Shown piece by piece: positions 5,433 through 50,978 of a DNA stretch of 64,000 nt; positions within the stretch are counted from its first letter, which is position 1, and each line of letters starts with the position of its first letter. The notes beneath the pieces were generated by a model. It had not been told where the DNA came from. It saw only the letters and a list, made by a program, of their open reading frames with translations, and did not search any database. The position numbers were made by a program, and so were the translations under genes. Source of the stretch: an uncultured bacterium (GTDB lineage Bacteria > Omnitrophota > Omnitrophia > Omnitrophales > Aquincolibacteriaceae). The DNA is taken from positions 1,310 to 65,309 of the forward strand of contig CAYZYT010000012.1 of assembly GCA_964482725.1 (NCBI GenBank), given 5' to 3'.

Positions 5433-5453
5433 GTCATCCTACTATTTATCCGG

Positions 5454-7850
5454 TTAGTTCGGGTCGGAGCTTAACTGATTCGTATGGTCTATGGTGCCCG
5501 GGGATTCAATAAACTGGGCGGGCAGCGGATTCGCGACGCCCCACCAGTTATACTGGGCTGTTACGGAATAAGCTGTTATATTTTTCACATCATATGCGGT
5601 ATTGCCGTATATGGAATTGTGTCCGGCCGACCCCTGAGTGCCTCCGCCGAAATCCGCGTTGCTAAGCGGTTGGTTATATCCAGCCCTGCCGATTATCACG
5701 CCATAAGCATTATCTTTGATAGTGTTGTTGTAGAAAGAACCGGTGAAGGTCGATGTTGACTGCGAGCCCAATTCGATGCCTTCGTATGTTTGGTCCGATA
5801 TCACGTTATCATAAACTGTCGCATTAACCGAGCTTGAACTTTGCAAATGGAAATTCACGCCATACACGTTACCCGTAAAAGTATTTCTCGCAAGAGTTAC
5901 TGTAATAGAGTTGGTTCCGTAAGGCTTAACAGCAATTCCGGTTTCCCCGTTGTCTGTAACGACATTGTCAGCCACCAGCACGCCATTCATAGACCCTGTG
6001 CTGCCTGGATTGAAAGCCAGCTGAAGACCCCGATTAAGGTTTTGATAAACGTTATTTCCGGAAATGGTAACGCTCAAAAAAGATGAAGCGTTATTACCTG
6101 TCAGCGCTATAGCAACAGAATCATTACCGCTCACTATATTGTTTTTCATCTCGCAAGTGTTAATAATGGAGCTGTTATATCCATACGTATATATTCCGGC
6201 CCAGGCGTTGCTTTGCACGGTATTTCCCGAGATCCTGACATCCCCTTGTGAATTTGTATAAAAATCGGCTCTTATTCCTCGGCCTGAGGTTGTGGGCGGG
6301 GCAACGGGCAAGGTATTATAAGCGGGCGCGCCCGTGTTCCTATTGTTTGAAGAGGTGTTGTTGTTAATGTGAAACATCGGGGTCGCCGTGCCCTGCGCGA
6401 CAGCGAAAATCCCGGCATAGCCGGAATTATCCGTAACGATATTGTTTGAGATGGTGTAAGTACCTGTAGTAGAGCCACCGATATCAAGAAGTATGCCTTC
6501 CTGGCTGTTGCCTGATACGGTATTGTGATCTATCGTCGTATTCCGTATGTTCTGGCCGTAGATGCCTCTTAAGCCGTTCTGCACTTTAAAGCCCATGATG
6601 GTGTTATTATTGGCAAGAGTAATACCGATACCAGCAACGCTAATGACTGGATTCCCCGGAGCTGATATGCCGGCAAAGCCTCCGTTGTATCCCGACCCCC
6701 ACAGCGTAACGCTATCGGTGAGTATTATATTTTCGGCATAATTGCCGCTTCCTTTATTCACATAGACCCACTTATCTCCTGTGGCGTTAGTAACGCCGTC
6801 AGCTATCGTGATATACGGATGCTCGAGTGAACCGTCGGAGATCCCCACGTAGGAGTTATCGACAAAGGTCATATCGTGCACTTTGGTCTTCAGCGTGGGC
6901 GCGGCGGCCGTCCTTGAAGTAACATCAATATCCCTTATGACCCTATCCACCATACGTTCCCTCAAGGGCCTGAGACCTTTCTGATAACCGAAAAATTTTC
7001 CAAATTCACCGAAAAGCGCGCTCATCTTGAATACATTGACCGTTTCAAGAGGAATGGTCATAAAAGCTCCCACAAAACAGTCCGTCCCGTTGTAACCATC
7101 GTGTTTGATCTCGACTTCAAAAGTGAGCGCGCGGATCGGCCGGATCTCGATCCGCCCTTTGATGCCGTTCATGCTCTTGTTGCAGTCCGGAAAGTAGCTG
7201 TAGCCCCCGAGAAATGCCCGGGTTTCCACATATTCCGAAATGAGCGGCAGAAGCACGCCGCCCTCATAATCGAATCCCATGAGCGCCTCTTCATAGGTCG
7301 GTGTCGTCATCTTCACGAGGCTTGTGGACCCGAACACGTAGGTGGTCTCTTCCGAGATGAGCTTTTTATCGGTAAGGGGAAAATAAAAATTGGTCCTCAT
7401 GTCGAACCATTTGGAAAGACCCTCCATGCCAAACCCGAACTGGTGATTCCGGACGTCATTCTCAGTGTGCTTAGTATCATAGAAAAAGTTGCCCCCGGCG
7501 AGGAACGATTCATCAAACAAAAGCGCACGCGCTCCCACGCCGACATTCTGCTCATTGGAGTTATGGGGTCCAATCACGGTCTTCGAATCCGCGAACAACA
7601 TGCTGTTACGGGTGCCCGCCACGGGAATCAGGTTATCGAAGTAAGTCTGAAGTTTTCCGGATCCGCCCCTAACGCCCGGCATGACCTGGGCGGGCCACTC
7701 TTTCGGAGCATCAAGGAACCAAAGTTCTTTTGTTTCGGTAGAGCGTTCCACAAGAGGAGCCTGCTGGGCTTGAGCGGCCGAAAAGCCAGTAGTGGGAACC
7801 ATAAAAATCAAAGGAAGAATTGCGATTAAGAAAAAAAGCTTCCCCCTCAT
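5454..7850 (-). CDS. Outer-membrane/secreted protein with N-terminal beta-barrel-like region and C-terminal right-handed parallel beta-helix (PbH1/pectate-lyase-like) repeats; possible inverse (type Ve) autotransporter
   Basis: The ORF runs to 7952, but the likely start is the internal Met of the signal peptide MRGKLFFLIAILPLIFMVPTTGFSAAQA. The N-terminal ~330 aa have alternating beta-strand character. The C-terminal repeats (NNIVTDNSGYAGIFA, GNTVQSNAWAGIYTYG) are typical of beta-helix proteins. There is no C-terminal barrel. Confidence 0.5.
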   Translation of the reverse strand: MRGKLFFLIAILPLIFMVPTTGFSAAQAQQAPLVERSTETKELWFLDAPKEWPAQVMPGVRGGSGKLQTYFDNLIPVAGTRNSMLFADSKTVIGPHNSNEQNVGVGARALLFDESFLAGGNFFYDTKHTENDVRNHQFGFGMEGLSKWFDMRTNFYFPLTDKKLISEETTYVFGSTSLVKMTTPTYEEALMGFDYEGGVLLPLISEYVETRAFLGGYSYFPDCNKSMNGIKGRIEIRPIRALTFEVEIKHDGYNGTDCFVGAFMTIPLETVNVFKMSALFGEFGKFFGYQKGLRPLRERMVDRVIRDIDVTSRTAAAPTLKTKVHDMTFVDNSYVGISDGSLEHPYITIADGVTNATGDKWVYVNKGSGNYAENIILTDSVTLWGSGYNGGFAGISAPGNPVISVAGIGITLANNNTIMGFKVQNGLRGIYGQNIRNTTIDHNTVSGNSQEGILLDIGGSTTGTYTISNNIVTDNSGYAGIFAVAQGTATPMFHINNNTSSNNRNTGAPAYNTLPVAPPTTSGRGIRADFYTNSQGDVRISGNTVQSNAWAGIYTYGYNSSIINTCEMKNNIVSGNDSVAIALTGNNASSFLSVTISGNNVYQNLNRGLQLAFNPGSTGSMNGVLVADNVVTDNGETGIAVKPYGTNSITVTLARNTFTGNVYGVNFHLQSSSSVNATVYDNVISDQTYEGIELGSQSTSTFTGSFYNNTIKDNAYGVIIGRAGYNQPLSNADFGGGTQGSAGHNSIYGNTAYDVKNITAYSVTAQYNWWGVANPLPAQFIESPGTIDHTNQLSSDPN

Positions 7851-8131
7851 CACTGCGAAGGTAAGGCTTTTTTTTACAAGAGAGGGAGCATGCGGCACAC
7901 CTTTGACATTTTTCATAATCGGCCTTAAAGTGGACGGCATTGCGCAGATCAATTTCTTGAAGAATAAAAGCTAGAACCAGCCACAGTAGTTTCTCTTTCT
8001 TTTTCTGCTACTCTTTTTCTTTCTCTTTGTGGATTCTGTGAATTTGTGGATGGGGCAAGGCAATCTCATCTAAATTCTGCGCAGAGTTTTCTCCGTGCAT
8101 TTAAGGCTCCACCGTGCCTTGACCGTCTTGC

Positions 8132-15968: not shown

Positions 15969-16949
15969 CTATTCCTTCGGCGATTGCATCATTTCCATGC
16001 TATCAATGTTTTTCTCCTTCAGCCCCCCGCGGAACGCGTACCAGATCCCGGAGCCGATGCTGAACGAATAAATCACGATATCCATCAAAAGCGTCAGTGC
16101 AAGCGCACGTTCCGCCGGAAGATAGCGGCTAAAAAGATACAGGACGCTGGCTTCCCTCACACCCAACCCGCCGATCGAAGGCGCCATACTAACGATGGAA
16201 ATAACGGGTATCAAGATAAAAAACTTCCAAAAATTGATATCGGCACCGATGGAAAGAGAGATCCAATAATTCGTACAAATAAAAACAGCCTGCCCGCAAA
16301 AAGAAAGCATCACGGCGATCAGGACGGGACCCCGATGATGCCGGTAACCGTAGATCGCATGATAAATTTCGGCAAGCTGCAACCTCCATTTTTCTTTAGG
16401 AATAAGACGCGCAAGTCCCTTAAAAAGGCGGGCGAAACGCCGGCTTGCAAAAAAAGCCCCGAAAAACACGATCACGCCAAGCGCGCCAAAGACCGCATAG
16501 TCAATGTAAGAGCTCTGAACTTCCTTGCTGAAACACATCAGCCCGATCGTCGCCATAAGAATGGTCGCGAGAAATCCAAGCATTCGATCGAGCATAATCG
16601 AAGTCGCGGATTCGATCTTTTTGCCCGAATGCTTGTAAGCATAAACAGCCTTGGCCACGTCCCCGCCCACGGCGGAAGGCAGCATCAGATTATAAAACAG
16701 CCCCACAAAACCGAGGTGATAACACTCGCGGAAGGTCATGCGGATATCCTGGACACGAAAAACCCACTGGAGCCGGACGGCAATGATGGCAAGGCCGAGA
16801 AAATAACCGGCGATCGCCGCAGCAAACCAGCCCCACACAACTTCATGGCGCAAAATGGCCATGGATTCATGCAGTTTGCCGCGCATGAAAAAAACAATGA
16901 GCCCTATCGCGGCAAAGCTGATGGCAAAACGGAGGATCTTGCCTTTCAT
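15969..16949 (-). CDS. UPF0104 / lysylphosphatidylglycerol-synthase-TM-like integral membrane protein
   Basis: 326 aa, polytopic, with a GGDVAKAV-type motif. Confidence 0.5.
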   Translation of the reverse strand: MKGKILRFAISFAAIGLIVFFMRGKLHESMAILRHEVVWGWFAAAIAGYFLGLAIIAVRLQWVFRVQDIRMTFRECYHLGFVGLFYNLMLPSAVGGDVAKAVYAYKHSGKKIESATSIMLDRMLGFLATILMATIGLMCFSKEVQSSYIDYAVFGALGVIVFFGAFFASRRFARLFKGLARLIPKEKWRLQLAEIYHAIYGYRHHRGPVLIAVMLSFCGQAVFICTNYWISLSIGADINFWKFFILIPVISIVSMAPSIGGLGVREASVLYLFSRYLPAERALALTLLMDIVIYSFSIGSGIWYAFRGGLKEKNIDSMEMMQSPKE

Positions 16950-17338
16950 ACGGTCTGCGAGAACTTGATCTGAAGTTGGGTAATAAGCGTTTCGAGCATT
17001 TTCTTTTCCTCCTCGCTCAAATTCCCCTGGGTCTTATCACGGAGCGCGATCAAAAGATCGATCGCCTCTTTGGCGCCTTCGGGATTGAGCTCCGTCTGCT
17101 GGGTCATAGGATTGGGGATATCGCCGAGGTTCATGAGAGCCTGATAGCCGAGCGATTGGACAAGGCTCAGAAAAGTCTTGGAGGTTTCAACGGGTTTGGT
17201 CTTAGCGGCCGGTGGGACAGCCGCGGCTTTGAGCTTAACGCTTTCGGCCTGCTCCTTCCAGCTTTCATCCACCTTCTTCTCAGTGAAGCGTATATCTTTG
17301 TCCGGTTCCATAAACCATTCTCCCATACTAAAATTCAA
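16946..17338 (-). CDS. DUF1844-family protein
   Basis: FLSLVQSLGYQALMNLGDIPNPMTQQTELNPEGAKEAIDLLIALRDKTQGNL matches the DUF1844 core. Overlaps the downstream gene by 4 bp. Confidence 0.55.
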   Translation of the reverse strand: MNFSMGEWFMEPDKDIRFTEKKVDESWKEQAESVKLKAAAVPPAAKTKPVETSKTFLSLVQSLGYQALMNLGDIPNPMTQQTELNPEGAKEAIDLLIALRDKTQGNLSEEEKKMLETLITQLQIKFSQTV

Positions 17339-17654
17339 AAATCACATCTTTCACTTATCGCAATAATATACCACTTCTGCGAATCCGCCAAACCACTCGG
17401 CCTATCCGCCATACATCACGTCGGATCAGTCCGTTCGCTGAAAACCGCTCACGGCTGAAAAAAAAGAGGTTCGTGACCGAGTGGGGATCTGGTGGCCACG
17501 AACCTCTGCAGGTGAGTCGAGACCCGTAAGTCTCGCATGCCGATATTATACTCCCGAGCTTTCCCCTGTCAACGCTCCGTCCAAGTCTTTTTTTTATTTA
17601 CATGCCTGGTGACCCGGGCAGCCCCGATCAATGACCTAGCGTTATGCTCTCAAA

Positions 17655-17700
17655 CTGCGGATAAAAGAAAAGCCCGGCTTCGAACAACCGAAACCGGGCT
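17655..17700 (-). terminator. Rho-independent terminator downstream of the giant gene
   Basis: Hairpin agcccggcttcgaacaaccgaaaccgggct, preceded on the plus strand by aaaagaaaa (a U-run in minus-strand sense). Confidence 0.6.
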
Positions 17701-17725
17701 TCGAAAAGATTCTCTTCTGTCAGGC

Positions 17726-20700
17726 TTACGCCGACACGGAGGTGGCTTTCTGGGTCAGCATATCCGACCACAGCTTGGTCAGGCCTTCCAGCAAGATTTC
17801 ATTAATGTCGTAGAGACCATCCCCCTTCTTTTCAAGGACATTATCCCCTACTTGCTGACGCAACAGAGCATTGGTTTGATCCACACCATTCTGCGCCACG
17901 TTTCCGGCCAAGAGGCTTCGGATCGCAGCATTTCGTTTCTGGGCCTGTTTCTGAGCCCGGAGAACGGTTCCCACAAATTGCCCCGAAAGATCCAGCCCTT
18001 CTTCAATAAGGATCGTCAAATTAGCCCGGGTAATGGCAGCATTCCCGCGCATGAGAGCTGCCGCGGCACTATTGGCGAGCGCCGATTTCGAAGACCTCAT
18101 TTTAAACTCGATCTGGACGCGCGGACCGATCTTTGCCCCCTTATGATCAAACGAATTTTGGACATTTTGAATCGCGCCCTTGAGAACCGCTTGTGCCGCC
18201 GCGTCTTGGAAAAGCGCGTCATTGGCAATGACAAAACGCTCGACCAGTTGGGTCTTCGTGCCAAGCCGCAAGCTCATATTCTTAAAATCTTCGTCGCTCG
18301 GCGCATCCGCCTTGACCGTCACCATGCCCCCGGACTTGTCAGAAACGGCCATGATGGGATTCTCCAGAATATTTTTTGCAAGACTAAGAAATTTTTGCCA
18401 GTTGAGATCACCCGCCTTCAGCGCTACAAGCGTCGTCAACATCGCCGCCACATCTTCAGCGTTAAGCATTTCGAGTTGAACCGGCACAATGATCTGCCCC
18501 AAAACATCCGCCAGAGAATCCACGCCACGTTGAAAATGCGTACTGATCAACTTCCGTCGAACCTCCGGGGTCTTACCGAGAAGAACCCAAACCTCTTCGG
18601 CCAACACTCGGCGCTGTTGCTCCACAACCGGCCGTCCTTCTGGTTTATAAATATCCACAACACCGGGGGTGAAACGACCTTCCGAGCGCGGCAACAAAGC
18701 GAGAATCTGCGGGATAATCCGGACTTCCAGGGTCGCGTAACCTGAAGCGTCCAAAGCGACATCGGATCTCTGGACCTTATAGGCATTACTTTGCAAGGCC
18801 TTGGCCACAGTATCTAGGTAATTTTTTATCGACTCCAAAGCTTGGCTTCGATCCACACCATCATTCCGGCGGAGCGCAAAGCGAACAAGAATCCCCGGGC
18901 GATTTCCTTTAGAAGGTGTGATCGATTCCAGGTCCAGCCGGCCCGCGTTAGCGATCCTCGACTCCAAATCGAAAATACCATAGACCGGCGTCAAAGGATA
19001 AGCGGCCCGCCTTTCTGTCAGAGCATTGACGACCGCGGCATCCAATTTAAACTCCTTGGCCAAGTCCCTCACCTCGGCGCGAGGCGCGGTGCTGATCTGC
19101 GGATTAAACGAATCCAGTGCCGCCTTAATCCCCTCAACGGTCGGAGAGAACGATTTGCCTCTGGCCGAGAGAGTTCTTACGTTCCGGGGATACCGGTACA
19201 CGACACCGTCCTCTGCAACAAAATCATATTGGCCTGCGGCGGGGAATTTCCGGTAGTGCGTCTTCATGGGGCCATTTAAAAACTTTTGGAGATCAAGCGC
19301 CGCATTCTGCGGATCCCTCGGATCCACACTTAAAACCAGCGCTTCTCTCTGTTTGATGACCTGTTTAACGATAATCCGTGTATTCTTTTCGGAACCCTCT
19401 TGAGTTACGCGGAACTCCCCTTTCCGCGTCTCGGAGCGAGCGGCTTCAATCCAGCGAGCAGCCTCGACAACAAATGCGGACTGAGCGTTCCAGTTTTGAC
19501 CTATCGGCACCTCGGCATTCCAGCGCACCACAGCGTCCAAAACACCTTTCAAATCATTCATTTGCCCAAAATAAAGGCTGAGCGCTCTTGCATACAAACT
19601 CGGATCTTTTTCAATCGCCTGCAAAAACTCAGGAGCTAGCAGTTCCTGACCAAGCTGCTGCGCGATCAAATCGCGCCGTTCAGGCTTCTCATGGCTAAGC
19701 AATAACTCCCGAAAAGACTGCTCGATCTCCTGGGTAATCGCCCCACGATTCGGGATGTTGCCACTCTTTGAATACCGCAGGGCTAATGAAGCTAGCTTGC
19801 TATCGGCCATCCGGCCCAACCCCCGGTTGAGCGGCGTCGCGTTATCATAAATGGAATTTTCGATTTTTCTGACAGCTTGCTCGACCGTCGCAAAGATATT
19901 CTCCCCTGGAGCGCGCGGGGCTTTCAGCATCTCAACGGCTTTTATCGCAGACTTTGCCATGACGACCCGGTCAAAGACTTTGAACTTAATGGGATGCTGC
20001 CCTTGAAGCGTCTGCACCACAAGCACCGGTCCGACCCAACTATCCGGCGCATCAGAAACCTGAATAGCAGATGTGATTTTCTCACCGTCTTTCGCAGCTA
20101 ACAATTGGACCGCATCTACCGTGCCCCGGCGAAAACCGAATAATGACTGTTCTAGCCCGGCAGGATTCATCGCAACGGCATCCACCACTTCCATCCTCCC
20201 CTCGGAGCGAGCGGTTAATTCAAACACGACCTGGATATCCCCCAACAAAATATTTTTTTCTGATTCCTGGGCATTGGTCCATCCGTCCACTCCCCGACTC
20301 AAAACCCTGACCTTCGCGGTCCCGTTCATATTTTCAGAGGAAATATCGCTTTCAAGAACAATGTAGACCTTGCCATGGTCGGGATGATCGGAACGATTGT
20401 GGAAAACGACCTGACCGGGATTGATACGCCACCCGGCCTGGGGCTGCACATTCACAAACCCGCGGGACTGCAACTCCGGGACCAAGTTTTGTTCCACCGT
20501 ATTTCCTGCCAGCGTGGACAAAAGGGCTTCCTTGATCCGAGCCAATCGCGCAGCATCCAACCTCGTCTCGGAGCGAGAGACAAACACTTGCCGGCCTCCG
20601 CCTCCATCTGTGACCTTGGCTTTTCCGGTCGCTATCAAGCGATACATGTCGACCACCGACATTATTTGATTCTTGTCAAAAAGTGAAACTGTTGTAGTCC

Positions 20701-23700
20701 CTGCTATTTCCTGGCTCTGTAAATACTGCAGCGCCGGGACTGCGACTGGATCATTTACCGAATAATCAACAACATTAGCGCCATTGCGCCGATCCGGTTT
20801 TGCAGATATCAGGCCCGCACGAATGCCTTCCTTAGCAATCTCGACCGACAAGCCCACATTCTCCGTTTCACTGATCTCAACACTCACCGCTGTATCAGGA
20901 GAATTCTTTGACCTAAGCTTCTTTTGAGCCAGATCAGTTCGCACAAAATCCGGGATATCCATGTCCGCGGGCAGGAAAAAATAAAATCCATCATTACCTA
21001 TCTGGCGGTAGCCAATCGTAGGATTGCGATCACGAAGGTCCGTATCCAGGGCGCTGGCTTTTAATCTCTGAGGTTGCGTCTTCGGCTTCTCAGAAATGGC
21101 GAGGAGAGAATAATCGCTACCATTGGGTATGCCAAAAACATCATAAAATTTCGGAGCAGCGTATTCTCGTCCAAGTGCTGACTCCGTGGTGATATCTCCC
21201 CCTCTCGCCTTTTGAGCCGCCTTGATAAGCTCTTCTTTGGGACCCGTCAACCTCACCTCGGAGCGGCCAAGCTCAGCCTGGATCTGGGCGCGGCGTTCAT
21301 TCACATTCGTGAGCACATCCTGAGGCGCTGCCGGATTGTCGACCAACCACCGGTCGATCTCGGCAAGAGACGCCGCCAATTGAGCATTTGCCAAAACAGG
21401 AGCGAGTGCGCCATTTGCTGCTCGGCCCGCCTTCTCAAAACTCATATCCCGGTCGTCTGTCAGTTTAAGCCCGGGGCGACCGAGCACGTCTCTTAGCCAG
21501 GCATTCTGCTTAACCAAAGCCTTGATCTCCTTAACCAAAGCCATGATCTGTAACTTCAAGTAGCCCAGGTGCAAAAGACTTCCCACTCTCGTATCACCAA
21601 GGCGCGCGATCTGTGCGTTCCTCTGCGCGGCCGGCACGAACACCAACCAATGAAAGATGGAGGAAACTGCCGTGAATGCGAAAAGGCCGATGGAAAAAGA
21701 CAGGAGCTTTTGATATCCGACAAAGCTCATTCCGAACGAGCCTTGCCCGACACCGCCAACATACGGAAGAACCTGATCCGTTGTCATTGTTCCCGTCCAG
21801 GCAAATGCAACAAGCCCTGCGGAAATCCCCGTCGCCCATAACAGCCCTTCCATGATCTTCTCGCTCACCGCCCTCGCCTCGGCGCGAGGGATAGAACCGG
21901 ATATGACGGCATATAATCCGCCTGTTTGATCGGCGGTATTGAATGCACGCTCTCGGTCAACGCCTCCCTTTTTGGAGCTGGCTATGATTTCGTCAGCTCT
22001 TGGAAGCCTCCTCACCAGATCCAAAACCATGCCGCGGTCGGCTTCAGAGAGCATAAAATTGGCCGCGAGGGCGTCCTGAAAAACGTCACCTTCATAAACC
22101 GGCAGTTTTGAAGCGACATAGCCAACGTCTTTGAATGGCGCCCGCAGCAACTCTTCTGTCTGACGGAACAATTCTGCAAGATATCCGGCGTACTGAGCGA
22201 CAAAGACCGGATCATTCCATTTTTCCTCCGGAAGCATCCGGAGAAGCTGTTCGGTGGGTTCCTGCAACATCGGCATGCGATCAAACCACGCTGGCAGCCC
22301 CGCAGCCCCCTGTCCCCTCGCCTCGGAGCGGGGAACAAAGACATCATTCGGAGTCCATTTTTTGGGCCCAACCCAGGCATCAAATAATTTCTGAAGGTCA
22401 CTAACCTCTTTTCTGGGCGCAGGTTGGGTTGCTTCGATCCGATCAGCTAATGACCTGAGTCCCGCTATAATTTTGGTGCGTTCACCCTCCGCGACGGCAG
22501 CCGTTTGGATCTTTTTAAGTACCGTCCCCAGGTCCTGAAGACCGGTAACCAGCTGAAATCTTGTTTTATCGACTTCCCCTGACTTCGTCAGGAGCCCAGC
22601 TTTAGCTAGTAAGAGCACCCCACCAAGCATCTCTGCTTTAGTTGCCGAAGCCCCGCCGAAATTCATGATAGAAGCCGAAACCGCTCCTTGCCTGAGCGCC
22701 ATGCCACGCAAAACCTCTACCAACTCAGGCGCAGTGAAAGACAAATCGGCGAATTTCTGATCTCCCCGCGAGTGGACTTCTTCAGCTTGATTCTCCAACA
22801 TAAAGCTATACAGTCCGATCGCGACGGCTCCCCCCCTCGACTCGGCGCGGGCGGGCGTTGCGGTTAATCCGGGGAACTGCCCAATCGACAAAAGGTATTG
22901 GTTAAACGCCAGCATTACGCTAATAGCCTTTTCTGATCCAGCCGGCGCCGGACGCAACTCGGCATTTTGCCCAAACATAGGACTTACAGCTGTCGCTAAT
23001 TTCAATAGTTCAGCCTGGATATCCACTTCGTCTGTGTTCAGGCCTTTAACATACTCAATAGCGGCGAGCCACATCGGACGCTGGGACGGAATTCGCATCC
23101 CCGATTCACGCCGTTCTCCGGGTTGATCCGCCAGCCTCTGGAAGTGCGCTACAAGATCTGCGGCTTTAACCCTTACCTCGGAGCGGGCTGGAGATGCGGT
23201 GGATCCTGGAAATTGGCCGATCGAAAAAAGGTATTGGTTAAACGCCAGCATTACGCTAATAGCCTTTTCTGATCCAGCCGGCGCCGGACGCAACTCGGCA
23301 TTTTGCCCAAACATAGGACTTACAGCTGTCGCTAATTTCAATAGTTCAGCCTGGATATCCACTTCGTCTGTGTTCAGGCCTTTAACATACTCAATAGCGG
23401 CGAGCCACATCGGACGCTGGGACGGAATTCGCATCCCCGATTCACGCCGTTCTCCGGGTTGATCCGCCAGCCTCTGGAAGTGCGCTACAAGATCTGCGGC
23501 TTTAACCCTTATCTCGGCGCGGGCCACGGAAACTTCTGGCTTCCCAACATTGAGCAAGATCGTCTTAATGGGCGAAAAGGGGTCCGGCAGACGCGTCCCT
23601 GCGGAAGTTCTCGCGAAATCATAGGCAGGCAACCGCGTGTTCAGGGACTGTAGCACTTCAACCAACTTCTCATCCGGCATACTAGACATTTCTTTTAAGA

Positions 23701-26700
23701 GCGTACCCGCCGCGGATCTTACCCTTTCATCAAGTTCCAGTTGATTAGAAACACCCTCCAACGCCATCCGAATGATTTCTCGATCCCTCTCGGTCAATCT
23801 CACTTCGGCGCGGGCCACGGAAACTTCTGGCTTCCCAACATTGAGCAAGATCGTCTTAATGGGCGAAAAGGGGTCCGGCAGACGCGTCCCTGCGGAAGTT
23901 CTCGCGAAATCATAGGCAGGCAACCGCGTGTTCAGGGACTGTAGCACTTCAACCAACTTCTCATCCGGCATACTAGACATTTCTTTTAAGAGCGTACCCG
24001 CCGCGGATCTTACCCTTTCATCAAGTTCCAGTTGATTAGAAACACCCTCCAACGCCATCCGAATGATTTCTCGATCCCTCTCGGTCAATCTCACTTCGGC
24101 GCGGGCTTGTATAAATTGTTTTTCCGTGGCGCGGGCCCGTATAAATTCCTCTTCCGTGATTTCCCAGCCAGCCGGGATCTCTCTCGAATTAAAATCGACT
24201 GTCTTATTCGTGGCATTAAAAGGGATGCGCGCATATTGTCTCTCCCACACACCGTCAGCCCCAAGAACCTGATGCATCACAAAAATAGCGTCCTTTGAAA
24301 CAAAGCGCTCAAGAAGATTGGTAACATCCACGAATCCTTGATCTTTAAAGTGGACCGTAAAAACAGGGTTCGTCACCGTAGGCTCAACGATCTCGATATT
24401 GGCCGGCACCCCAGTCGCCGCAAGCGCCCCTGTAGCTTCCGGTACGGCGCTCGGAGCAACTTTAAGGCCCACGTCCATCACATCATTGGTTGTATACGCG
24501 TCGCGAAGATTCATCGCAAAGAATCCAGCCGCAGCAGCGTTTGTCAGCGGAAAAGATCTGTACCCGAAGTAGTTCGTACCGGGTTCAAACACGCCCTCGA
24601 TACCGGTCCCTTCGTTGTTCCAGCCAGTAAGCAAATTGGTACTGGAAATATAATCCGCAACCGCGTAAACCGGATTTGTTCCCGGGACCACGATGATAGG
24701 GGTCAAAACCATTTGCGCAGGCATGTTCGTCGTCGCCGGGACGAATTCCGGCTGGATCGAAATCTCCACTAAATTGGCGGAGAACGCCACACTCCCCATG
24801 ATCGAAAAGGCTACCGCCGTTGTCGCCAACTTCCCGGCCTTCGCCTTGCCTGGCTTGCGAATGGGTCTGATTAAATCTCCCGCATAGGGAAGAACCGCAG
24901 GGACAGAAGCCGGCGACATGGAGTATTTCCCGAACTGTGGCGCGGGCTCTTTCGGACGGAGATCACGCTCATTTTCCAAAATGGGTGCCAGAGCTTTCTG
25001 TGCCGCAATACCCGTAGTACCAAAGATCGTCCCGGATTCGACAAGAACGCCGCCCGGCAAAGCCATCTTTTCCGAGACCGTCGCAGCAACGGTCCCGTTG
25101 ATGGTCACGGATTGGGCCTCCGGCGAACTCGAACGGACCTTATAACTATCCTTGACGGGCTTTCCTTGAGCGTCCACTTCTTGAATGAGGGTGATGCCTT
25201 TTTTAACGGCGAGTTCCGACTGATTAAAAATCTCAACAACACCTGCAATGTTCTTATCCCCAACCCTGCTCATCGCTCCAAGAATCACAGCATATACTTC
25301 TTCGGGCCGGATACCCTGGGCTGCCAGAACGCCATCGCTCATAAGCTTTGACGCCATTTCAAGGTACGAGATCGAAAAAAGGTGCTCCCGATCCTGGAGC
25401 ATGGCGACACGGTATAAATTCTCATCGGACTTTTCGGAAAGACGCGGGGTGACGATGCCGTAGCTAATGGCGTTCTCCCTGAAAAGATCGCTCATGCCGT
25501 CGGTGTGGAAACCGCCGGTGATCAGAATGGCTTTGGTGATCTTCTTCTCTGCCATCTGGGACTGCATCTCTTTATAGAAGACGGCTTCACGCTTGTGAGC
25601 AAAATCATAGAACTCGAGGCCGGCAGTGAAAAGCTCATCCATCTTGGCGGCGAACTTAGGGGGCATCACATCACTAACAGACTGGCGACTAGAGACTGGA
25701 GACTGGAGGCTGGAAACCTTTTGACTTTGGTCTCTGGTCTCTGGTCTCTGGTCTGTGGTCCGTACGGCGCTTACCAGCCGTGCAGCAAGACTCGGAATCG
25801 CAACCTGGTCTTTATTCGAAAGCAGCTGCTGCCACTGTGTGCGATTGAGCTCAAGATGAAGAAGTTTACGCAAAAGCTCACCATCCCTATAAAGGGCGAG
25901 GAGTGCCTTCTGCTGAGGCTCCTGCGCTAAGGTATCGAGCATCTGCGTAAAAAGATATTCGATCTCCTCAAAAAGGACCTTGGGGTCCAGTTCCGATCGG
26001 AGAGTCACATAACCAGCAAAAAGACTGAACGCGGGATAATCGCTGAATTTAAAACCTTTGGGGCCGGCTTCCTGGGCCAGGCGTTCCAGCACTTCGCGCG
26101 GCGAAACTTCCGTAGCCGACTTCCCTACGGCAATACTTCCTTCATTGAAATTTTCAAGTGTCGCGAGAAGTTCTTTGGAAACTCCCTGGGTGCGAAGCAC
26201 CTTGATAAGCTTGGCCTGCTCTTCCTGCCCCTTCGTTTTATTCATATCTTTTTCCAGCTGCTGGATGACGAGAAGGCGTGAGATCTGCGGCCAGCCAACC
26301 TGAGCAAAAAGACTTTCAAGGTCAACGTTCAGGATCTTCTTGGATTTCACGGTAAGACTTTTGACGAAGGGCATGAAATCGCGGCGGCCCTGCTCGAAAC
26401 GCTTCCAGTCGGCGATCAGTTCCCGGGTCTCGGGTGAAAATGTTTGAGAAGCAACCTTGTCGAGTTTTCCGTCGAATCCTTTAAAGAAGTGCGACACATC
26501 GGCTTCAGCACCGAACACTTTTTTCAGAGCGTCATAGTTGGCCTTATATAAGGAAGCTTCTTCAATACCAAGAGCCTCGATATTCTTGTCAGCCTCCATC
26601 ATGTAGAGTTCGGCGCCGGTAAGCTCACCCTGCTTGGCAAGCTCATCACACAGCTTGAGATTGCGTTCCTGGTCCGGGAAGAGACGCAGGTAATCCGCGT

Positions 26701-27028
26701 CCAGTTTCTCAGAGGCTCCTTCGACGAAGATGGTCTTGAAACCATACTTCTTATTCATATGACCCAAAAGCTGCTTGATCTTCATCTGGGCCTGGTAATT
26801 GGCATGGGCATTCTGGATATGAAGAATGAATTGCGTATTAGCTCCGGCGGGCGCTTCATAGAGCGCATCCACAGTACCGAGTTCCGGAGGAATATCAATG
26901 CTCAGATAGGAAGGAAGCTCGCGCTGGCCGGCCATTTCGATTCCGGCGCCTGGGGCGGCTGAGACGCATTGCGTCGTCAGAAAGCAAAATAAGGTGCCCG
27001 TCGCAACCACCTTAAGCATGTTTTTCAC
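17726..27028 (-). CDS. Giant (3100 aa) secreted, membrane-spanning modular protein with a TraB/GumN/Tiki-like N-terminal domain and about 14 modules delimited by a recurring [AP]R[AS]E[VI]R motif
   Basis: Uninterrupted 9.3-kb ORF. Signal peptide MKNMLKVVATGTLFCFLTTQCVSA. The N-terminal domain carries FILHIQNAH...TIFVEGA and the GumN-like C-terminal motif ILITGGFHTDGMSDLFRENAISYGIV. A central hydrophobic block (GLLWATGISAGLVAFAW...FVPAAQ) predicts TM helices. Two in-frame tandem repeats are present, of 112 aa and 97 aa. Confidence 0.85.
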   Translation of the reverse strand: MKNMLKVVATGTLFCFLTTQCVSAAPGAGIEMAGQRELPSYLSIDIPPELGTVDALYEAPAGANTQFILHIQNAHANYQAQMKIKQLLGHMNKKYGFKTIFVEGASEKLDADYLRLFPDQERNLKLCDELAKQGELTGAELYMMEADKNIEALGIEEASLYKANYDALKKVFGAEADVSHFFKGFDGKLDKVASQTFSPETRELIADWKRFEQGRRDFMPFVKSLTVKSKKILNVDLESLFAQVGWPQISRLLVIQQLEKDMNKTKGQEEQAKLIKVLRTQGVSKELLATLENFNEGSIAVGKSATEVSPREVLERLAQEAGPKGFKFSDYPAFSLFAGYVTLRSELDPKVLFEEIEYLFTQMLDTLAQEPQQKALLALYRDGELLRKLLHLELNRTQWQQLLSNKDQVAIPSLAARLVSAVRTTDQRPETRDQSQKVSSLQSPVSSRQSVSDVMPPKFAAKMDELFTAGLEFYDFAHKREAVFYKEMQSQMAEKKITKAILITGGFHTDGMSDLFRENAISYGIVTPRLSEKSDENLYRVAMLQDREHLFSISYLEMASKLMSDGVLAAQGIRPEEVYAVILGAMSRVGDKNIAGVVEIFNQSELAVKKGITLIQEVDAQGKPVKDSYKVRSSSPEAQSVTINGTVAATVSEKMALPGGVLVESGTIFGTTGIAAQKALAPILENERDLRPKEPAPQFGKYSMSPASVPAVLPYAGDLIRPIRKPGKAKAGKLATTAVAFSIMGSVAFSANLVEISIQPEFVPATTNMPAQMVLTPIIVVPGTNPVYAVADYISSTNLLTGWNNEGTGIEGVFEPGTNYFGYRSFPLTNAAAAGFFAMNLRDAYTTNDVMDVGLKVAPSAVPEATGALAATGVPANIEIVEPTVTNPVFTVHFKDQGFVDVTNLLERFVSKDAIFVMHQVLGADGVWERQYARIPFNATNKTVDFNSREIPAGWEITEEEFIRARATEKQFIQARAEVRLTERDREIIRMALEGVSNQLELDERVRSAAGTLLKEMSSMPDEKLVEVLQSLNTRLPAYDFARTSAGTRLPDPFSPIKTILLNVGKPEVSVARAEVRLTERDREIIRMALEGVSNQLELDERVRSAAGTLLKEMSSMPDEKLVEVLQSLNTRLPAYDFARTSAGTRLPDPFSPIKTILLNVGKPEVSVARAEIRVKAADLVAHFQRLADQPGERRESGMRIPSQRPMWLAAIEYVKGLNTDEVDIQAELLKLATAVSPMFGQNAELRPAPAGSEKAISVMLAFNQYLFSIGQFPGSTASPARSEVRVKAADLVAHFQRLADQPGERRESGMRIPSQRPMWLAAIEYVKGLNTDEVDIQAELLKLATAVSPMFGQNAELRPAPAGSEKAISVMLAFNQYLLSIGQFPGLTATPARAESRGGAVAIGLYSFMLENQAEEVHSRGDQKFADLSFTAPELVEVLRGMALRQGAVSASIMNFGGASATKAEMLGGVLLLAKAGLLTKSGEVDKTRFQLVTGLQDLGTVLKKIQTAAVAEGERTKIIAGLRSLADRIEATQPAPRKEVSDLQKLFDAWVGPKKWTPNDVFVPRSEARGQGAAGLPAWFDRMPMLQEPTEQLLRMLPEEKWNDPVFVAQYAGYLAELFRQTEELLRAPFKDVGYVASKLPVYEGDVFQDALAANFMLSEADRGMVLDLVRRLPRADEIIASSKKGGVDRERAFNTADQTGGLYAVISGSIPRAEARAVSEKIMEGLLWATGISAGLVAFAWTGTMTTDQVLPYVGGVGQGSFGMSFVGYQKLLSFSIGLFAFTAVSSIFHWLVFVPAAQRNAQIARLGDTRVGSLLHLGYLKLQIMALVKEIKALVKQNAWLRDVLGRPGLKLTDDRDMSFEKAGRAANGALAPVLANAQLAASLAEIDRWLVDNPAAPQDVLTNVNERRAQIQAELGRSEVRLTGPKEELIKAAQKARGGDITTESALGREYAAPKFYDVFGIPNGSDYSLLAISEKPKTQPQRLKASALDTDLRDRNPTIGYRQIGNDGFYFFLPADMDIPDFVRTDLAQKKLRSKNSPDTAVSVEISETENVGLSVEIAKEGIRAGLISAKPDRRNGANVVDYSVNDPVAVPALQYLQSQEIAGTTTVSLFDKNQIMSVVDMYRLIATGKAKVTDGGGGRQVFVSRSETRLDAARLARIKEALLSTLAGNTVEQNLVPELQSRGFVNVQPQAGWRINPGQVVFHNRSDHPDHGKVYIVLESDISSENMNGTAKVRVLSRGVDGWTNAQESEKNILLGDIQVVFELTARSEGRMEVVDAVAMNPAGLEQSLFGFRRGTVDAVQLLAAKDGEKITSAIQVSDAPDSWVGPVLVVQTLQGQHPIKFKVFDRVVMAKSAIKAVEMLKAPRAPGENIFATVEQAVRKIENSIYDNATPLNRGLGRMADSKLASLALRYSKSGNIPNRGAITQEIEQSFRELLLSHEKPERRDLIAQQLGQELLAPEFLQAIEKDPSLYARALSLYFGQMNDLKGVLDAVVRWNAEVPIGQNWNAQSAFVVEAARWIEAARSETRKGEFRVTQEGSEKNTRIIVKQVIKQREALVLSVDPRDPQNAALDLQKFLNGPMKTHYRKFPAAGQYDFVAEDGVVYRYPRNVRTLSARGKSFSPTVEGIKAALDSFNPQISTAPRAEVRDLAKEFKLDAAVVNALTERRAAYPLTPVYGIFDLESRIANAGRLDLESITPSKGNRPGILVRFALRRNDGVDRSQALESIKNYLDTVAKALQSNAYKVQRSDVALDASGYATLEVRIIPQILALLPRSEGRFTPGVVDIYKPEGRPVVEQQRRVLAEEVWVLLGKTPEVRRKLISTHFQRGVDSLADVLGQIIVPVQLEMLNAEDVAAMLTTLVALKAGDLNWQKFLSLAKNILENPIMAVSDKSGGMVTVKADAPSDEDFKNMSLRLGTKTQLVERFVIANDALFQDAAAQAVLKGAIQNVQNSFDHKGAKIGPRVQIEFKMRSSKSALANSAAAALMRGNAAITRANLTILIEEGLDLSGQFVGTVLRAQKQAQKRNAAIRSLLAGNVAQNGVDQTNALLRQQVGDNVLEKKGDGLYDINEILLEGLTKLWSDMLTQKATSVSA
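22890..23526 (-). repeat. Intragenic tandem duplication, 336-bp unit x2, near-identical at the DNA level
   Basis: About 300 bp at 22890-23190 are repeated at 23226-23526, with short divergent junctions. The unit encodes the 112-aa unit AEIRVKAADLVAHFQRLADQPGERRES...GQFPGSTASPAR. Confidence 0.85.
23509..24099 (-). repeat. Intragenic tandem duplication, 291-bp unit x2, near-identical at the DNA level
   Basis: Anchor cggaaacttctggcttcccaac occurs at 23527 and 23818 (period 291 bp). The unit encodes AEVRLTERDREIIRMALEGVSNQLELDE...NVGKPEVSVAR (97 aa). The plus-strand small ORFs at 23459/23741 are duplicated artefacts of this repeat. Confidence 0.85.
25690..25752 (-). repeat. Heptanucleotide microsatellites inside the giant ORF: (AGACTGG)x3 and (GGTCTCT)x4
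   Basis: gagactggagactggaggctgg ... ggtctctggtctctggtctctggtctgtgg. The 7-nt unit is not a multiple of 3. The tracts encode the low-complexity stretch RPETRDQSQKVSSLQSPVSSRQS. Confidence 0.7.
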
Positions 27029-27207
27029 GACTACCCCCTTAGAAATCGAATTTATTAACGCTTTTTAAAGCTATAAGAAAACTCAACCAAATGTAACACA
27101 TAGAACGAAAATTTCAAGGGTCAAACGGACGATTTTATTAAAATAATTTTATTTTGCAAAAACAACACAACCCATTCTACCGTAATAAGATAAGCTGTCT
27201 TCATAGA

Positions 27208-27945
27208 TTAAACCTGTCGATTTTCCTGAAATTCAATGCCAAAACCAAGCTGTTCCTTCCGGATCTCCTTGCGGCGGACCTTCCCCGCAACATGATATTC
27301 CTCCGGAAAATTAGCGCTTGGGAATATATGGATCTCCACAGGAAGATTCTCTATAGGCTCAATGGCAATAATCTTCGCCGCCGTTTCAAGATTCAAATAT
27401 TCGACAAAGATCCCCCCCTGGCTGATATTCGTGACGATAGCTTTCGTGATGACTATCTCATTATCAGCGCTCGTGATCCGAAGCTCCACGGGGATAGCAA
27501 CATGCATACGATGGTTTCTCCGGCCATCCAGTTGAAAACCGAGTGACTCCTTGGGGGTTTTTGCCCCCGGATCCAAATACCGCTTATCGGGATCCTTATC
27601 ATAGAGAAACGGCCCAAAACTCTCTGCCACCTCTTTCTCATCCGCACAGATATCCACCTTTCCTGAGAAGCAATTATCCTCGAGAAAATTGGCCATATCG
27701 GGTGAGGCTCCGTAGAGCGCACTGTGTTTGGGTCGAATACAAACGGTCAGGAGCCGCCTAAGCCCTATAGTGTCCAAGGGGCCCGCCGCCTTAAAATTCA
27801 GAATGATCTGGTGAAAGTGGTGACGCCGGATACTCTTCTGGATCTTCCAGGCCACTTCCTGCACCGACTCAAAGGTCGGCTCACCCTTAAGGTCGAAAAC
27901 AGCAACCCCTCCGATCTCTCGTGTCGAATAATGAAATTTGCTCAT
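27208..27945 (-). CDS. STAS-domain (anti-sigma-antagonist-like) plus PilZ-domain fusion protein; predicted c-di-GMP effector
   Basis: N-terminal STAS pattern (IGGVAVFDLKGEP...IILNFKAAGPLDTIGLRRLL). C-terminal PilZ motifs RRNHR and NISQGGIFV. Confidence 0.65.
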   Translation of the reverse strand: MSKFHYSTREIGGVAVFDLKGEPTFESVQEVAWKIQKSIRRHHFHQIILNFKAAGPLDTIGLRRLLTVCIRPKHSALYGASPDMANFLEDNCFSGKVDICADEKEVAESFGPFLYDKDPDKRYLDPGAKTPKESLGFQLDGRRNHRMHVAIPVELRITSADNEIVITKAIVTNISQGGIFVEYLNLETAAKIIAIEPIENLPVEIHIFPSANFPEEYHVAGKVRRKEIRKEQLGFGIEFQENRQV

Positions 27946-28100
27946 AGCATTCTCCGCTTTCTGGAGCGCTCAGTGCGACGAAGTTCCCGGTGAAGCTTCG
28001 GGGACATGTAGCCCGAAAGGATATCGCCCTGATGAATAACACAAAACGTGAGAGGCCCGCCCCGGACATTCATTTTTGCGTCTCGAATCCCGTAGAGATC
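27943..28100 (-). CDS. Micro-ORF (52 aa) translationally coupled to the STAS-PilZ gene
   Basis: ATG at 28100. Product MTHDLYGIRDAKMNVRGGPLTFCVIHQGDILSGYMSPKLHRELRRTERSRKRR. Its TGA stop overlaps the downstream ATG (ATGA). Below the 60-aa cutoff of the ORF track. Confidence 0.3.
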
Positions 28101-28419
28101 GTGGGTCATTTTTTTCTCCTTTACTTCAGTATTTACATCATTTCAAAAACTACTTTTATTACTTCCTAATAAAAACATAGCCTAACTATATTCTTTTGTC
28201 AATGCTACCAATCAAAATATCCACAGCAAAGCTCATTTATAGCAATGCATAGCAGAATTATTGATTTTTGAGCCATTTTTACACACAAAGATCATTTAGC
28301 GAGAGGATCACATGGCTATTGCTATCTCTTCAAAGCTTAAAACACAGCACAAGACACGGAAATAATCGCCTCAATAAACAACCCCTTTCCACCGCCTCGA
28401 AGATACAAAGAAATTATAC

Positions 28420-28446
28420 CAATTATTGACTATTAGTCAATAATTG
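28420..28446. promoter_or_regulatory. Perfect 13-1-13 palindrome (putative operator) in the AT-rich promoter region upstream of the micro-ORF/STAS-PilZ/giant-gene block
   Basis: caattattgacta-t-tagtcaataattg: the reverse complement of the left arm equals the right arm exactly. It lies in a roughly 400-bp AT-rich non-coding region. Confidence 0.5.
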
Positions 28447-28559
28447 CTTCACCTATTACCATTTTTATAAACCCAGCAACGCTCTAAACAAAATGAATGG
28501 AGGATTACGCAGGGGCTCGGGACAGAAGCGCTCCCGAAAAAGCCTATCGCTCGTTTGAG

Positions 28560-29897
28560 CTAAGGCTGGTAATACTGGGCGGGCTTGGAAAGATATTCCT
28601 GGTCGAGTTTTTTTCCAGGGTGATCATGAGGGTAGATGTAGCCCTTGCCGTGGCCGAGGTCTTTGGCGCCCGAATAGGCTGAGGACCGGAGATGCTGGGG
28701 CACCTGCTCGGTTTTCTGGTTCTGGACATCTTCCGTCGCACTCTCAATGGCCTTATAGCTGGCATTGCTCTTGGGGGCAAGCGCGAGGTAAGACACAACC
28801 TGCGCGAGAATGATGCGCGCTTCGGGCATACCGACAAACTCCACGGCCGTAAACCCGCTCGTCGCAAGGATCAATGCCTGGGGGTCCGCATTCCCAATGT
28901 CTTCGCTCGCGAAGATCACAAGACGCCGCACAATGAATCTCGGGTCCTCCCCCGCGTAAAGCATCTTGGCGAGCCAATAGATCGCGGCATTCACATCCGA
29001 ACCACGCAAACTCTTAATGAATGCGCTGATCGTATCGTAATGAAAATCCTCATCCCAGTCATATTGAACGATCTTTTTCTGGCATGATTCCTCAGCGACG
29101 GACGCCGTAAAATAAATAACACCCTTCTCATCCGGAGGCGTTGTCATCGCGCCCACGTCGAGCGCGTTCAGAGCTCTCCGCGCGTCGCCCGAGGCCTGCC
29201 TTGCGATGTGGTCAAGCGCCGCAGGATCAACCTCGATCTTGAGATTTCCAAGACCGCGCGCTTTATCTCCCAAGGCCCGATTCATAATGCGGATCAAATG
29301 AGATTCGTCATGCGGCTTTAGCTCGCAAACGATCGAGCGGGAAAGAAGCGGCCCTCGGATCGCGAAGGACGGATTCTGCGTTGTGGCGCCGATAAGAATG
29401 ATAACGCCGGACTCCACATCCGGCATCAGAATGTCCTGCTGGGCTTTGTTGAAACGATGGATCTCGTCAATAAAAAGAACGGTCTTGCGCTTAGAGCGCC
29501 TCAGAAGCTTCCGGGCCTCATCCTGGATCTTACGTATCTCCGCAACATTGGAGAGCACCGCATTGATCGAGACATAGCGAGCCGAGGTCGTGCGCGCAAT
29601 GACAAGCGCCAACGTGGTTTTACCGGTACCCGGAGGACCATAGAGAATAAGTGAGGAGAGACGGTCGGATTCCAAAGTTCTGCGGAGCAACTTTCCAGCG
29701 CCCAGAAGATGCTCCTGCCCCACGATATCGTCCAACGTGGCGGGCCGCATCCTGACCGCGAGCGGCGCATCCGGGGGGACTTGCAGGGAATCCTCCACCT
29801 CGGAGGAACCGAATAATTCGTCAGAAAACTCGGGAGAAGAATGGCGGAGGGCGGAGGGCGTCAAACCTTTTTCCTTTTGTTTTTCACCATCCTCCAT
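28560..29897 (-). CDS. rarA: Replication-associated recombination protein A (AAA+ ATPase)
   Basis: [11 protein letters not shown] Walker [17 protein letters not shown], and a MgsA C-terminal domain. Confidence 0.9.
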
Positions 29898-50597: not shown

Positions 50598-50612
50598 TGG
50601 AGCCGTATCATA

Positions 50613-50978
50613 TCACAAAACCTTTATTTTTTCCTCTTCCCTTATCCAAAGCGTCTTTTCTTCTCCAGCCACCGAGATCACGACATGATCTTTAAGGATC
50701 TTCACAACCGTCGCATCCCCCACGGCCTCACCCTTCAGATAAGTTTTTCCGTTGAGAATGGCCATCGATCTCTCTCCGGGGTCATAGATGATCCCCTCGA
50801 GCTTGACCCCCGAGGACCCCCCCGACATAGAAACATTTTCCTCCCCGGTAAGCGGCACAAAGGGATCCCGCCTTTTCCCGGAATCATAGACGATCTCTGA
50901 CGCGGCGAACGAACTCGACACTAAGATCAGCAACAGCACCCCGACGACCACGGGCTGGAACTTTTTATTTCTTAGCAT
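50613..50978 (-). CDS. pilP: Type IV pilus assembly protein PilP
   Basis: Small lipoprotein-like protein with an RDPFVPL motif. Sits between pilO and pilQ. Confidence 0.7.
   Translation of the reverse strand: MLRNKKFQPVVVGVLLLILVSSSFAASEIVYDSGKRRDPFVPLTGEENVSMSGGSSGVKLEGIIYDPGERSMAILNGKTYLKGEAVGDATVVKILKDHVVISVAGEEKTLWIREEEKIKVL

Follow-up and report, generated by a model that had tools for sequence, protein, structure and literature searches.

A stretch of 64,000 nucleotides (nt) from contig CAYZYT010000012.1 (assembly GCA_964482725.1) of an uncultured Omnitrophota bacterium, here called the window, carries a two-gene unit in which a very small open reading frame (the micro-ORF) runs into a gene for a 245-amino-acid (aa) protein that joins a STAS domain to a PilZ domain. 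PilZ receptors are the classic readers of cyclic di-GMP (c-di-GMP), a second messenger, and the output of the signal is set by the domain to which they are fused. We favour, at a probability of about 55%, the reading that the two genes constitute an autonomous, phylum-restricted c-di-GMP receptor module in which STAS is the output domain and the small protein a co-translated partner. What appears to be new, judged from the sequences, is that a PilZ receptor of known kind is combined with STAS as its output domain and accompanied by a new small protein.

A previous inspection of the window without database searches (the sequence-only reading) had described the 245-aa protein as a STAS-PilZ fusion with two c-di-GMP-binding motifs, RRNHR and NISQGG, and profile searches bear this out for both domains. 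The Pfam PilZ model (PF07238) matches residues 142-242 with 31.6 bits, against a threshold of 22.5, and the Pfam STAS model matches residues 7-73 with a marginal 23.1 bits against a threshold of 22.6. The first motif (RxxxR) lies on the N-terminal linker of the PilZ domain and the second ([D/N]xSxxG) roughly 30 residues downstream. In an alignment of 99 homologues, R142, R143, R146, N173 and G178 are each present in all 99 sequences, and S175 and G177 in 97 each. Thus, both c-di-GMP motifs are intact and under strong constraint.

An AlphaFold2 model of the protein, with a predicted local distance difference test score (pLDDT) of 90.0 and a predicted template modelling score (pTM) of 0.87, comprises a complete STAS domain at residues 1-115 and, after a linker, a barrel at residues 141-240 with a single helix and with six strands between residues 151 and 240. 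The model points to a defined two-domain arrangement of the STAS and PilZ halves. Foldseek searches of the PDB matched the N-terminal half to SpoIIAA, RsbV, RsbS and TM1442 (1til_B, 1th8_B, 1vc1_A and 6m36; TM-score on target 0.66-0.76) and the C-terminal half to the PilZ domains of BcsA (5ej1 and 4p00), VCA0042/PlzD (2rde), MotI (5vx6) and PlzA, with E values of 5.6e-4 to 1.9e-3 for the BcsA, VCA0042 and MotI matches. No PDB chain in this search spanned both halves, the best TM-score on query being 0.39.

The predicted architecture resembles that of YcgR, PlzD/VCA0042, MotI/DgrA and PlzA, in that the PilZ domain is C-terminal, RxxxR lies on the inter-domain linker, [D/N]xSxxG lies on the barrel and the N-terminal domain packs against the PilZ domain (Foldseek 2rde, 5vx6 and 7mie). 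However, YcgR-type receptors begin with a YcgR-N/PilZN domain, whereas the N-terminal half here has a STAS fold instead, and no flagellar or other known target is present. The STAS half shares its fold with SpoIIAA, RsbV and TM1442 (TM-score on target 0.68-0.76), and its sequence alignment to SpoIIAA runs across the helix-2 switch region. It differs from these proteins in being fused to a PilZ domain, in scoring far below the cut-offs of the NCBIfam anti-sigma-antagonist models and in lacking a conserved phospho-acceptor serine. Specifically, the residue equivalent to Ser58 of SpoIIAA is T59 in the window and is Ser or Thr in 21 of the 99 homologues (A in 27, P in 26, E in 16, T in 15 and S in 6), and neither a cognate RsbW-type kinase (HATPase_c) nor a PP2C phosphatase is found among the window ORFs scanned. 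This domain is therefore not a conventional phospho-switch. Several bacterial systems link c-di-GMP to a STAS or anti-sigma type of switch, such as HsbA/HsbD of Pseudomonas, BgrV/BgrW of Sinorhizobium and RsiG-WhiG of Streptomyces, but in these the sensor and the STAS component are separate polypeptides, whereas here they are fused.

The pairing of STAS and PilZ domains, which had been called uncommon, is indeed rare. A search of 5.8 billion proteins returned 121 matches to the STAS-PilZ protein, nearly all of them full-length (234-279 aa) with identity down to 45%, and every named homologue among them belongs to Candidatus Omnitrophota. When the family profile was run against 1.84 billion cluster representatives, only 96 clusters (50% identity) matched at E ≤ 0.001. 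Some 60 of the 96 are proteins of 223-272 aa with both domains, and the two named clusters are from Omnitrophota. Full-text literature searches found no paper on a STAS-PilZ fusion. The operon formed by the micro-ORF and the STAS-PilZ gene is apparently limited to this uncultured phylum.

The micro-ORF had been read as a 52-aa frame at 28100-27943. It proves to be a genuine gene, but one of 55 aa at 28109-27942: the start is the ATG at 28109, a GGAG lies 6 nt upstream of it, and this start and its Shine-Dalgarno sequence are kept in relatives, whose conserved start region reads AAAGGAGA followed 6-8 nt later by ATGAC(A/C)CA(T/C). Among nine close relatives, the ratio of non-synonymous to synonymous substitution rates (dN/dS) is 0.064 in the frame of the micro-ORF; for the two alternative frames it is 1.8 and 2.6. 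Variable columns fall 22/14/51 on the three codon positions. A profile search collected 122 database homologues of 49-99 aa, nearly all of 49-60 aa, and the named ones are annotated as 'hypothetical'. The protein is basic (12 Lys or Arg versus 5 Asp or Glu; isoelectric point 10.9) and has the conserved core LSGYMxPxLHRxLRRxERxRKR. In 30 locus-derived peptides, P37 and H40 are invariant, with K12, L31, L43 and K51 nearly so, and this conservation spans lineages that share only about 45% identity in their STAS-PilZ proteins. By these sequence criteria, the micro-ORF is no chance ORF but a genuine gene, and its product belongs to a new family of small proteins.

None of the 122 homologues has a Pfam domain, the window's micro-protein matches nothing in Pfam or NCBIfam, and a profile search of the PDB with it gave nothing meaningful. 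Assignment to a known family was tried and rejected, as 45 members gave only sub-threshold matches of 23 residues (Antitox_RHH in 7 and MatP in 6; best E 0.005); a ribbon-helix-helix nature of the protein is a tentative lead. Natural fusions of the micro-protein to STAS-PilZ, as a basis for modelling a complex, were likewise discarded, since gene calling had extended the longer entries (P0020, P0120 and others) out of frame.

Gene order was compared by tblastn with the window's proteins in 58 Omnitrophota loci from species-representative genomes. The micro-ORF abuts the STAS-PilZ start in 33 of 56 assessable loci, and locus L010 has a second copy without a canonical start, in which ATT replaces ATG. 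Among 34 junctions, including that of the window, 26 are ATGA overlaps, 5 are 8-nt overlaps and 3 are 1-nt gaps, so that all lie within -5 to +8 nt, and the peptide measures 52-60 aa throughout the loci. The ATGA overlap noted previously in the window is real, and the abutting or overlapping stop found wherever the micro-ORF occurs is the geometry expected of coupled translation. In a tree of the STAS-PilZ proteins, the micro-ORF occurs on both sides of the midpoint root and is missing from scattered branches, which suggests that it is ancestral and was lost several times.

The conserved stop/start overlap would also be expected if the micro-ORF were a mere leader that sets the rate of STAS-PilZ translation and whose peptide has no function of its own. 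At its 3′ end, the Arg and Lys codons also provide the downstream ATG with a Shine-Dalgarno-like GGAG, and many lineages have lost it while keeping STAS-PilZ. However, the dN/dS value reflects strong purifying selection on the peptide, and P37, H40 and L43 as well as a nearly fixed length are kept across the divergent lineages mentioned above, although a leader needs neither. We consider a pure leader role extremely improbable.

The genomes also contain a second STAS-PilZ paralogue of about 250 aa (SP2), which has both c-di-GMP motifs (ERRxFxRL and VVTNLSEGG) and is located in 19 loci between mgsA and either the micro-ORF or the STAS-PilZ gene described above (SP1). Where all three genes exist (L049, L051-L054, L058 and L059), the order is SP2-micro-SP1, and the SP2/micro junctions in L049, L051-L053 and L059 consist of a 4-nt or 8-nt overlap or a 3-nt gap. 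This order, with its tight junctions, ties the small protein to the STAS-PilZ proteins more firmly than to any other neighbour. In one lineage, a Y1 transposase-like gene (a faint Pfam hit) lies between mgsA and the micro-ORF (L066:713-1357; ERZ1426829 contig).

A promoter-like site, TTGACA-17-TATGTT, with a score of 10/12, lies about 65 nt upstream of the micro-ORF ATG, and its TTGACAA and TA.G.TT elements, as well as the Shine-Dalgarno sequence, are invariant in 13 aligned relatives. We propose that the micro-ORF and the STAS-PilZ gene form a self-contained bicistronic operon under this sigma-70-type promoter. An Rfam search of 16900-28600 gave no match at E ≤ 1, the operon leader yielded no consensus structure, and a riboswitch in the leader or spacers was dismissed. 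Farther upstream, about 300 nt from the micro-ORF, a near-consensus promoter-like site, TTGACT-16-TGgTATAAT (11/12), occupies 28413-28446 on the minus strand, and a perfect 27-nt palindrome, CAATTATTGACTAATAGTCAATAATTG, overlaps it at 28420-28446. The palindrome was rejected as part of the module, its core being absent from all 65 loci searched, and so was an upstream TGTG..GGCTCA block, which is conserved only loosely.

As the sequence-only reading had stated, the next gene downstream of STAS-PilZ is a giant ORF on the same strand. A spacer of 179 nt separates the two. The surrounding genes form a backbone of pheS, pheT, mgsA, SP2 (optional), micro-ORF (optional), STAS-PilZ, a variable slot, DUF1844, LPG_synthase_TM (flippase-like), aroQ, accB, accC, an Asp23-like gene and pfkA, which is kept in the 58 loci with or without a giant gene. 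The slot is occupied by a homologue of the window's giant in 19 loci and by non-homologous large genes in 4; it is empty in 32 and not assessable in 3. The slot is either a hotspot of insertion or a site favoured by large genes. The order micro-ORF, STAS-PilZ and giant gene, whose conservation had been proposed as a check, is kept only by the window's clade and a single further lineage, amounting to 19 of 55 assessable loci in addition to L059-L062 and ERZ1426829; it is not kept in the 32 loci without a large gene or the 4 with unrelated ones. The module lies at a fixed chromosomal position after mgsA and, on the reading that we favour, is not dedicated to the giant gene.

An alternative is that the STAS-PilZ protein and the micro-protein are a dedicated c-di-GMP regulator of the production, export or processing of the adjacent giant. 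A homologous giant adjoins STAS-PilZ in 19 loci in addition to the window. This adjacency extends to a distant clade (L054 and L059-L062). In L059-L062, mgsA, SP2, the micro-ORF and SP1 are followed by a gene for a 7044-aa protein that starts only 33 nt past the SP1 stop and whose N-terminus is homologous to the window's giant (E 4.8e-39; L059/L062:10938 onward). Pfam hits of this 7044-aa protein include Sigma70 r2/r4, HATPase_c and HPr, where those to HATPase_c and HPr were precomputed and the first 3079 aa were read; the sigma hits belong to a complete ECF sigma factor module. HATPase_c is the class of domain found in the anti-sigma kinases with which STAS proteins pair, and it was seen only inside this giant of lineage L059. 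Furthermore, the whole micro/STAS-PilZ/giant cassette is tandemly duplicated in the metagenome-assembled genome CAZDVO01 (L010:9837-17393 and L057:1-10422) and on the 287-kb ENA contig ERZ1426829, where the array reads micro-ORF, STAS-PilZ, giant (3744 aa), micro-ORF, STAS-PilZ, giant (5668 aa). The duplicated STAS-PilZ copies are 93-98% identical, and the giants differ in length (2016 versus at least 3275 aa, and 3744 versus 5668 aa). Other large genes fill the same slot elsewhere, among them an inverse autotransporter and a weakly RHS-like protein.

Small pilZ genes beside Omnitrophota giants are also on record: West-Roberts et al. 2023 (bioRxiv 10.1101/2023.11.21.568195) reported that most giant genes of this phylum are followed by small pilZ homologues, placed a type II secretion system (T2SS) locus ahead of the giants, and did not mention a STAS domain. 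In both cases, small PilZ genes of the same phylum directly adjoin very large genes, and the tandem arrays described above also place a STAS-PilZ gene downstream of a giant. In this comparison, made by description only, the published pilZ genes lie downstream of giants, whereas the STAS-PilZ gene lies in a housekeeping block, upstream of a gene for a 3.1-kaa protein.

Against a dedicated regulator, 32 of the 55 assessable loci keep STAS-PilZ in place without a large gene downstream. In empty-slot genomes, a homologue of about 1000 aa of the giant's N-terminal domain lies elsewhere, either some 10 kb downstream (L031, L040 and L055) or in a gcvP-lplA-uvrD context without an adjoining STAS-PilZ gene. 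On contig L066, the gene for a protein identical to P0015 has no giant gene after it but an M28 peptidase gene that lies on the opposite strand, and this peptidase in the giant's place indicates strain-level variation at the site. Moreover, the window's giant has no HATPase_c, sigma or other recognisable domain and, in the window's clade, appears to have its own promoter. In 11 relatives, among them the second copy of the cassette in L057, the CTTG and TGTTA cores of this promoter-like element do not vary, nor does an AAAAAG downstream of them. Because of this conserved element, STAS-PilZ and the giant gene do not obviously belong to a single operon. The minus strand of the 179-nt spacer shows no terminator-like site, and transcription may read through from the micro/STAS-PilZ operon into the giant gene. 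Second-messenger control of the giant, which the sequence-only reading had proposed, thus draws on adjacency in two deep clades, the 33-nt spacer and the tandem cassette, but it is not established given the separate promoter and the many loci without a large gene, and we regard a dedicated regulator as doubtful.

The commonest arrangement is in fact a different one. In the 32 empty-slot loci, the DUF1844 and flippase-like genes follow STAS-PilZ directly on the same strand, 130-700 nt downstream, and in the window the same two genes persist just past the giant. STAS-PilZ could therefore act with the DUF1844 and LPG_synthase_TM proteins to couple c-di-GMP to membrane-lipid or envelope remodelling. 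However, the whole block from pheS to pfkA is syntenic throughout, so that the adjacency of STAS-PilZ and DUF1844 is not specific. In addition, inserted DNA of 2.4 to more than 9 kb is tolerated between these units in 23 loci, and they show neither overlap nor coupling. Such a partnership is very unlikely in our judgement.

The giant proteins themselves show a recurrent feature. The window's 3100-aa giant has no Pfam, NCBIfam or PDB sequence match. It contains the motif R[SA]ExR 13 times; in 1000 trials with shuffled sequences, the average was 0.14 and no trial exceeded 2. In total, 17 homologous giants have 135 such sites, and the four non-homologous large proteins of the same slot lack them altogether. 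The codons of the motif vary synonymously, including switches between TCN and AGY serine codons, although CGC is enriched at the first Arg. This variation argues against a DNA- or RNA-level signal and indicates that R[SA]ExR acts mainly at the peptide level. The motifs are 30-650 aa apart, and the recognisable segments between them hold whole cytoplasmic-type domains. Two tandem duplications in the window's giant gene, of 291 nt (twice, 100% identity) and 336 nt (twice, 95% identity), have unit boundaries that coincide with the motif.

Among the giants, only the N-terminal 600 or so aa and the C-terminal 300 or so aa are conserved, and the N-terminal domain has the invariant residues H75, Q81, E103 and GGFH505-508. 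Stand-alone homologues of about 1000 aa (P0339-P0357; L063-L065) share the giant's N-terminal part, contain at most one motif and finish in the same ...SA tail; in one case there is also a weak alignment to the C-terminal region of the giant. From these conserved ends and stand-alone homologues, the giants look like an ancestor of about 1000 aa into which motif-bounded modules were inserted. The invariant residues are reminiscent of TraB/Tiki-type proteins, but a TraB/Tiki-like protease as the identity of the N-terminal domain was abandoned because Pfam, NCBIfam and PDB sequence searches gave it no support. By analogy with the module arrays of MARTX toxins and with polyproteins, R[SA]ExR may mark processing sites of Omnitrophota giants. 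If so, R[SA]ExR may provide the boundaries of modules or of cleavage whose absence was noted in earlier work on these giant proteins: West-Roberts et al. 2023 (bioRxiv 10.1101/2023.11.21.568195) stated that the cleavage points are unknown, and the words motif, cleavage and polyprotein are absent from the text of a 2026 preprint that describes a multi-enzyme class of these giants.

A broader reading would connect the two subjects, with the micro-protein and STAS-PilZ as a c-di-GMP-gated partner switch, operated by ligand binding in place of phosphorylation, that governs the modular giants, for example by docking on modules of HATPase_c or sigma-like type or by controlling their release at R[SA]ExR junctions, and with a cassette that is ancestral and was repeatedly lost or relocated. 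We hold this to be improbable.

Elsewhere in the window, a type IV pilus or type II secretion cluster encodes a secretin, PilM, a pseudopilin, T2SS-F, two T2SS-E ATPases with MshEN domains and a stand-alone MshEN protein of 152 aa. MshEN is a c-di-GMP-binding domain, and these three MshEN proteins make c-di-GMP signalling in this organism plausible from its gene content, with c-di-GMP probably having other targets in the genome. Separately, a classical autotransporter of 980 aa adjoins an inverse autotransporter of 832 aa, with beta-helix passenger domains. Coordinates of all features are collected in Table 1.

Table 1 Positions of the module, its neighbours and related features. Entries without a locus handle refer to the window.
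Feature	Position	Strand	Basis or remark
Micro-ORF, 55 aa + stop	27942-28109	-	ATG start at 28109
STAS-PilZ gene, 245 aa + stop	27208-27945	-	Pfam, homologues, alignments, model, fold search
ATGA stop/start overlap of micro-ORF and STAS-PilZ	27942-27945	-	Read from sequence
STAS domain, residues 1-115	27601-27945	-	Pfam, SpoIIAA alignment, fold matches
T59 codon, aligned to SpoIIAA Ser58	27769-27771	-	Alignment
RRNHR (RxxxR c-di-GMP motif), residues 142-146	27508-27522	-	Sequence
NISQGG ([D/N]xSxxG c-di-GMP motif), residues 173-178	27412-27429	-	Sequence
PilZ beta-barrel domain, residues 141-245	27211-27525	-	Pfam, model, Foldseek
Shine-Dalgarno sequence (AAGGAG) of micro-ORF	28116-28121	-	Sequence
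Promoter-like site of micro/STAS-PilZ operon, TTGACA-17-TATGTT	28174-28202	-	Motif score and conservation
Promoter-like element of giant gene, TTGAAA-16-TGT-TACATT	27090-27117	-	Context, outside module
Giant gene, 3100 aa	17726-27028	-	Context; lineage-specific occupant of variable slot
Conserved N-terminal part of giant, about 600 aa	25229-27028	-	
Conserved C-terminal part of giant, about 300 aa	about 17729-18700	-	
R[SA]ExR sites in giant gene, first base	24103, 23812, 23521, 23185, 22849, 22330, 21886, 21265, 20575, 20209, 19438, 19081, 18688	-	
Tandem duplication in giant gene, 291 nt units	23514-24106	-	
Tandem duplication in giant gene, 336 nt units	22841-23524	-	
130-aa DUF1844 gene overlapping start of flippase-like LPG_synthase_TM gene	15969-17338	-	
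mgsA/rarA, upstream of micro-ORF	28560-29897		pheT/pheS farther upstream
Pilus/secretion cluster	48942-59404	-	
980-aa and 832-aa autotransporters	2490-7952	-	
Slot: homologue of the window's giant	L001-L015, L017, L019, L054, L057		19 loci
Slot: non-homologous large genes	L020, L029, L034, L043		4 loci
Slot: 807-aa inverse autotransporter	L020:11118-13541		
Slot: protein of at least 3183 aa	L034:9743-19292		Weak RHS-repeat match
Slot: unknown 1222-aa protein	L029:5767-9435		
Slot: unknown protein of at least 1271 aa	L043:9178-12991		
SP2 carriers	L022, L025, L027-L029, L032, L036, L038-L040, L043, L045, L049, L051-L055, L058, L059		
Inter-motif segment of giant, ECF sigma factor	L062, aa 782-1084		r2 839-903, r4 1010-1056
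Inter-motif segment of giant, response-regulator receiver	L013, aa 586-821		Receiver 692-805
Inter-motif segment of giant, S-adenosylmethionine (SAM) methyltransferase	L009, aa 1734-2118		Methyltransferase 1935-2026

Several observations weigh against an autonomous receptor module with a small partner. The STAS assignment by Pfam barely clears its threshold, and the NCBIfam anti-sigma-antagonist models TIGR00377 and TIGR02886 give 15.3 and 14.8 bits against cut-offs of 53.45 and 114.75. The micro-protein modelled alone has low confidence (pLDDT 64), with a C-terminal helix at residues 37-54 and a low-confidence N-terminus, and its gene is absent from 23 of the 56 assessable loci, which means that it is not indispensable. 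The conserved position of the module lies inside a broadly syntenic housekeeping block and says little about function, and the recurrent adjacency to giant genes may mean that the module is less autonomous than we propose.

For the receptor module that we nevertheless favour, we infer c-di-GMP binding, the switching mechanism of the STAS domain and a physical interaction with the micro-protein as follows. STAS-PilZ would be a cytoplasmic receptor in which the PilZ barrel and the RRxxR linker bind c-di-GMP, and the fused STAS domain, with its anti-sigma-antagonist fold, would serve as the output surface. Since a conserved phospho-serine switch is lacking, ligand binding probably replaces phosphorylation in deciding whether the STAS domain holds or releases its partner. 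The basic micro-protein, which would be made in step with the receptor through stop/start coupling, is most likely that partner or a co-factor.

If this reading is true, a phosphorylation-insensitive STAS domain fused to a PilZ domain would be a direct second-messenger version of anti-sigma-antagonist partner switching. The module is a compact two-protein system that could be expressed in Escherichia coli, from a phylum without a cultured model, and it would offer a concrete handle on regulation around the giant genes of Omnitrophota, whose biology is largely unknown.

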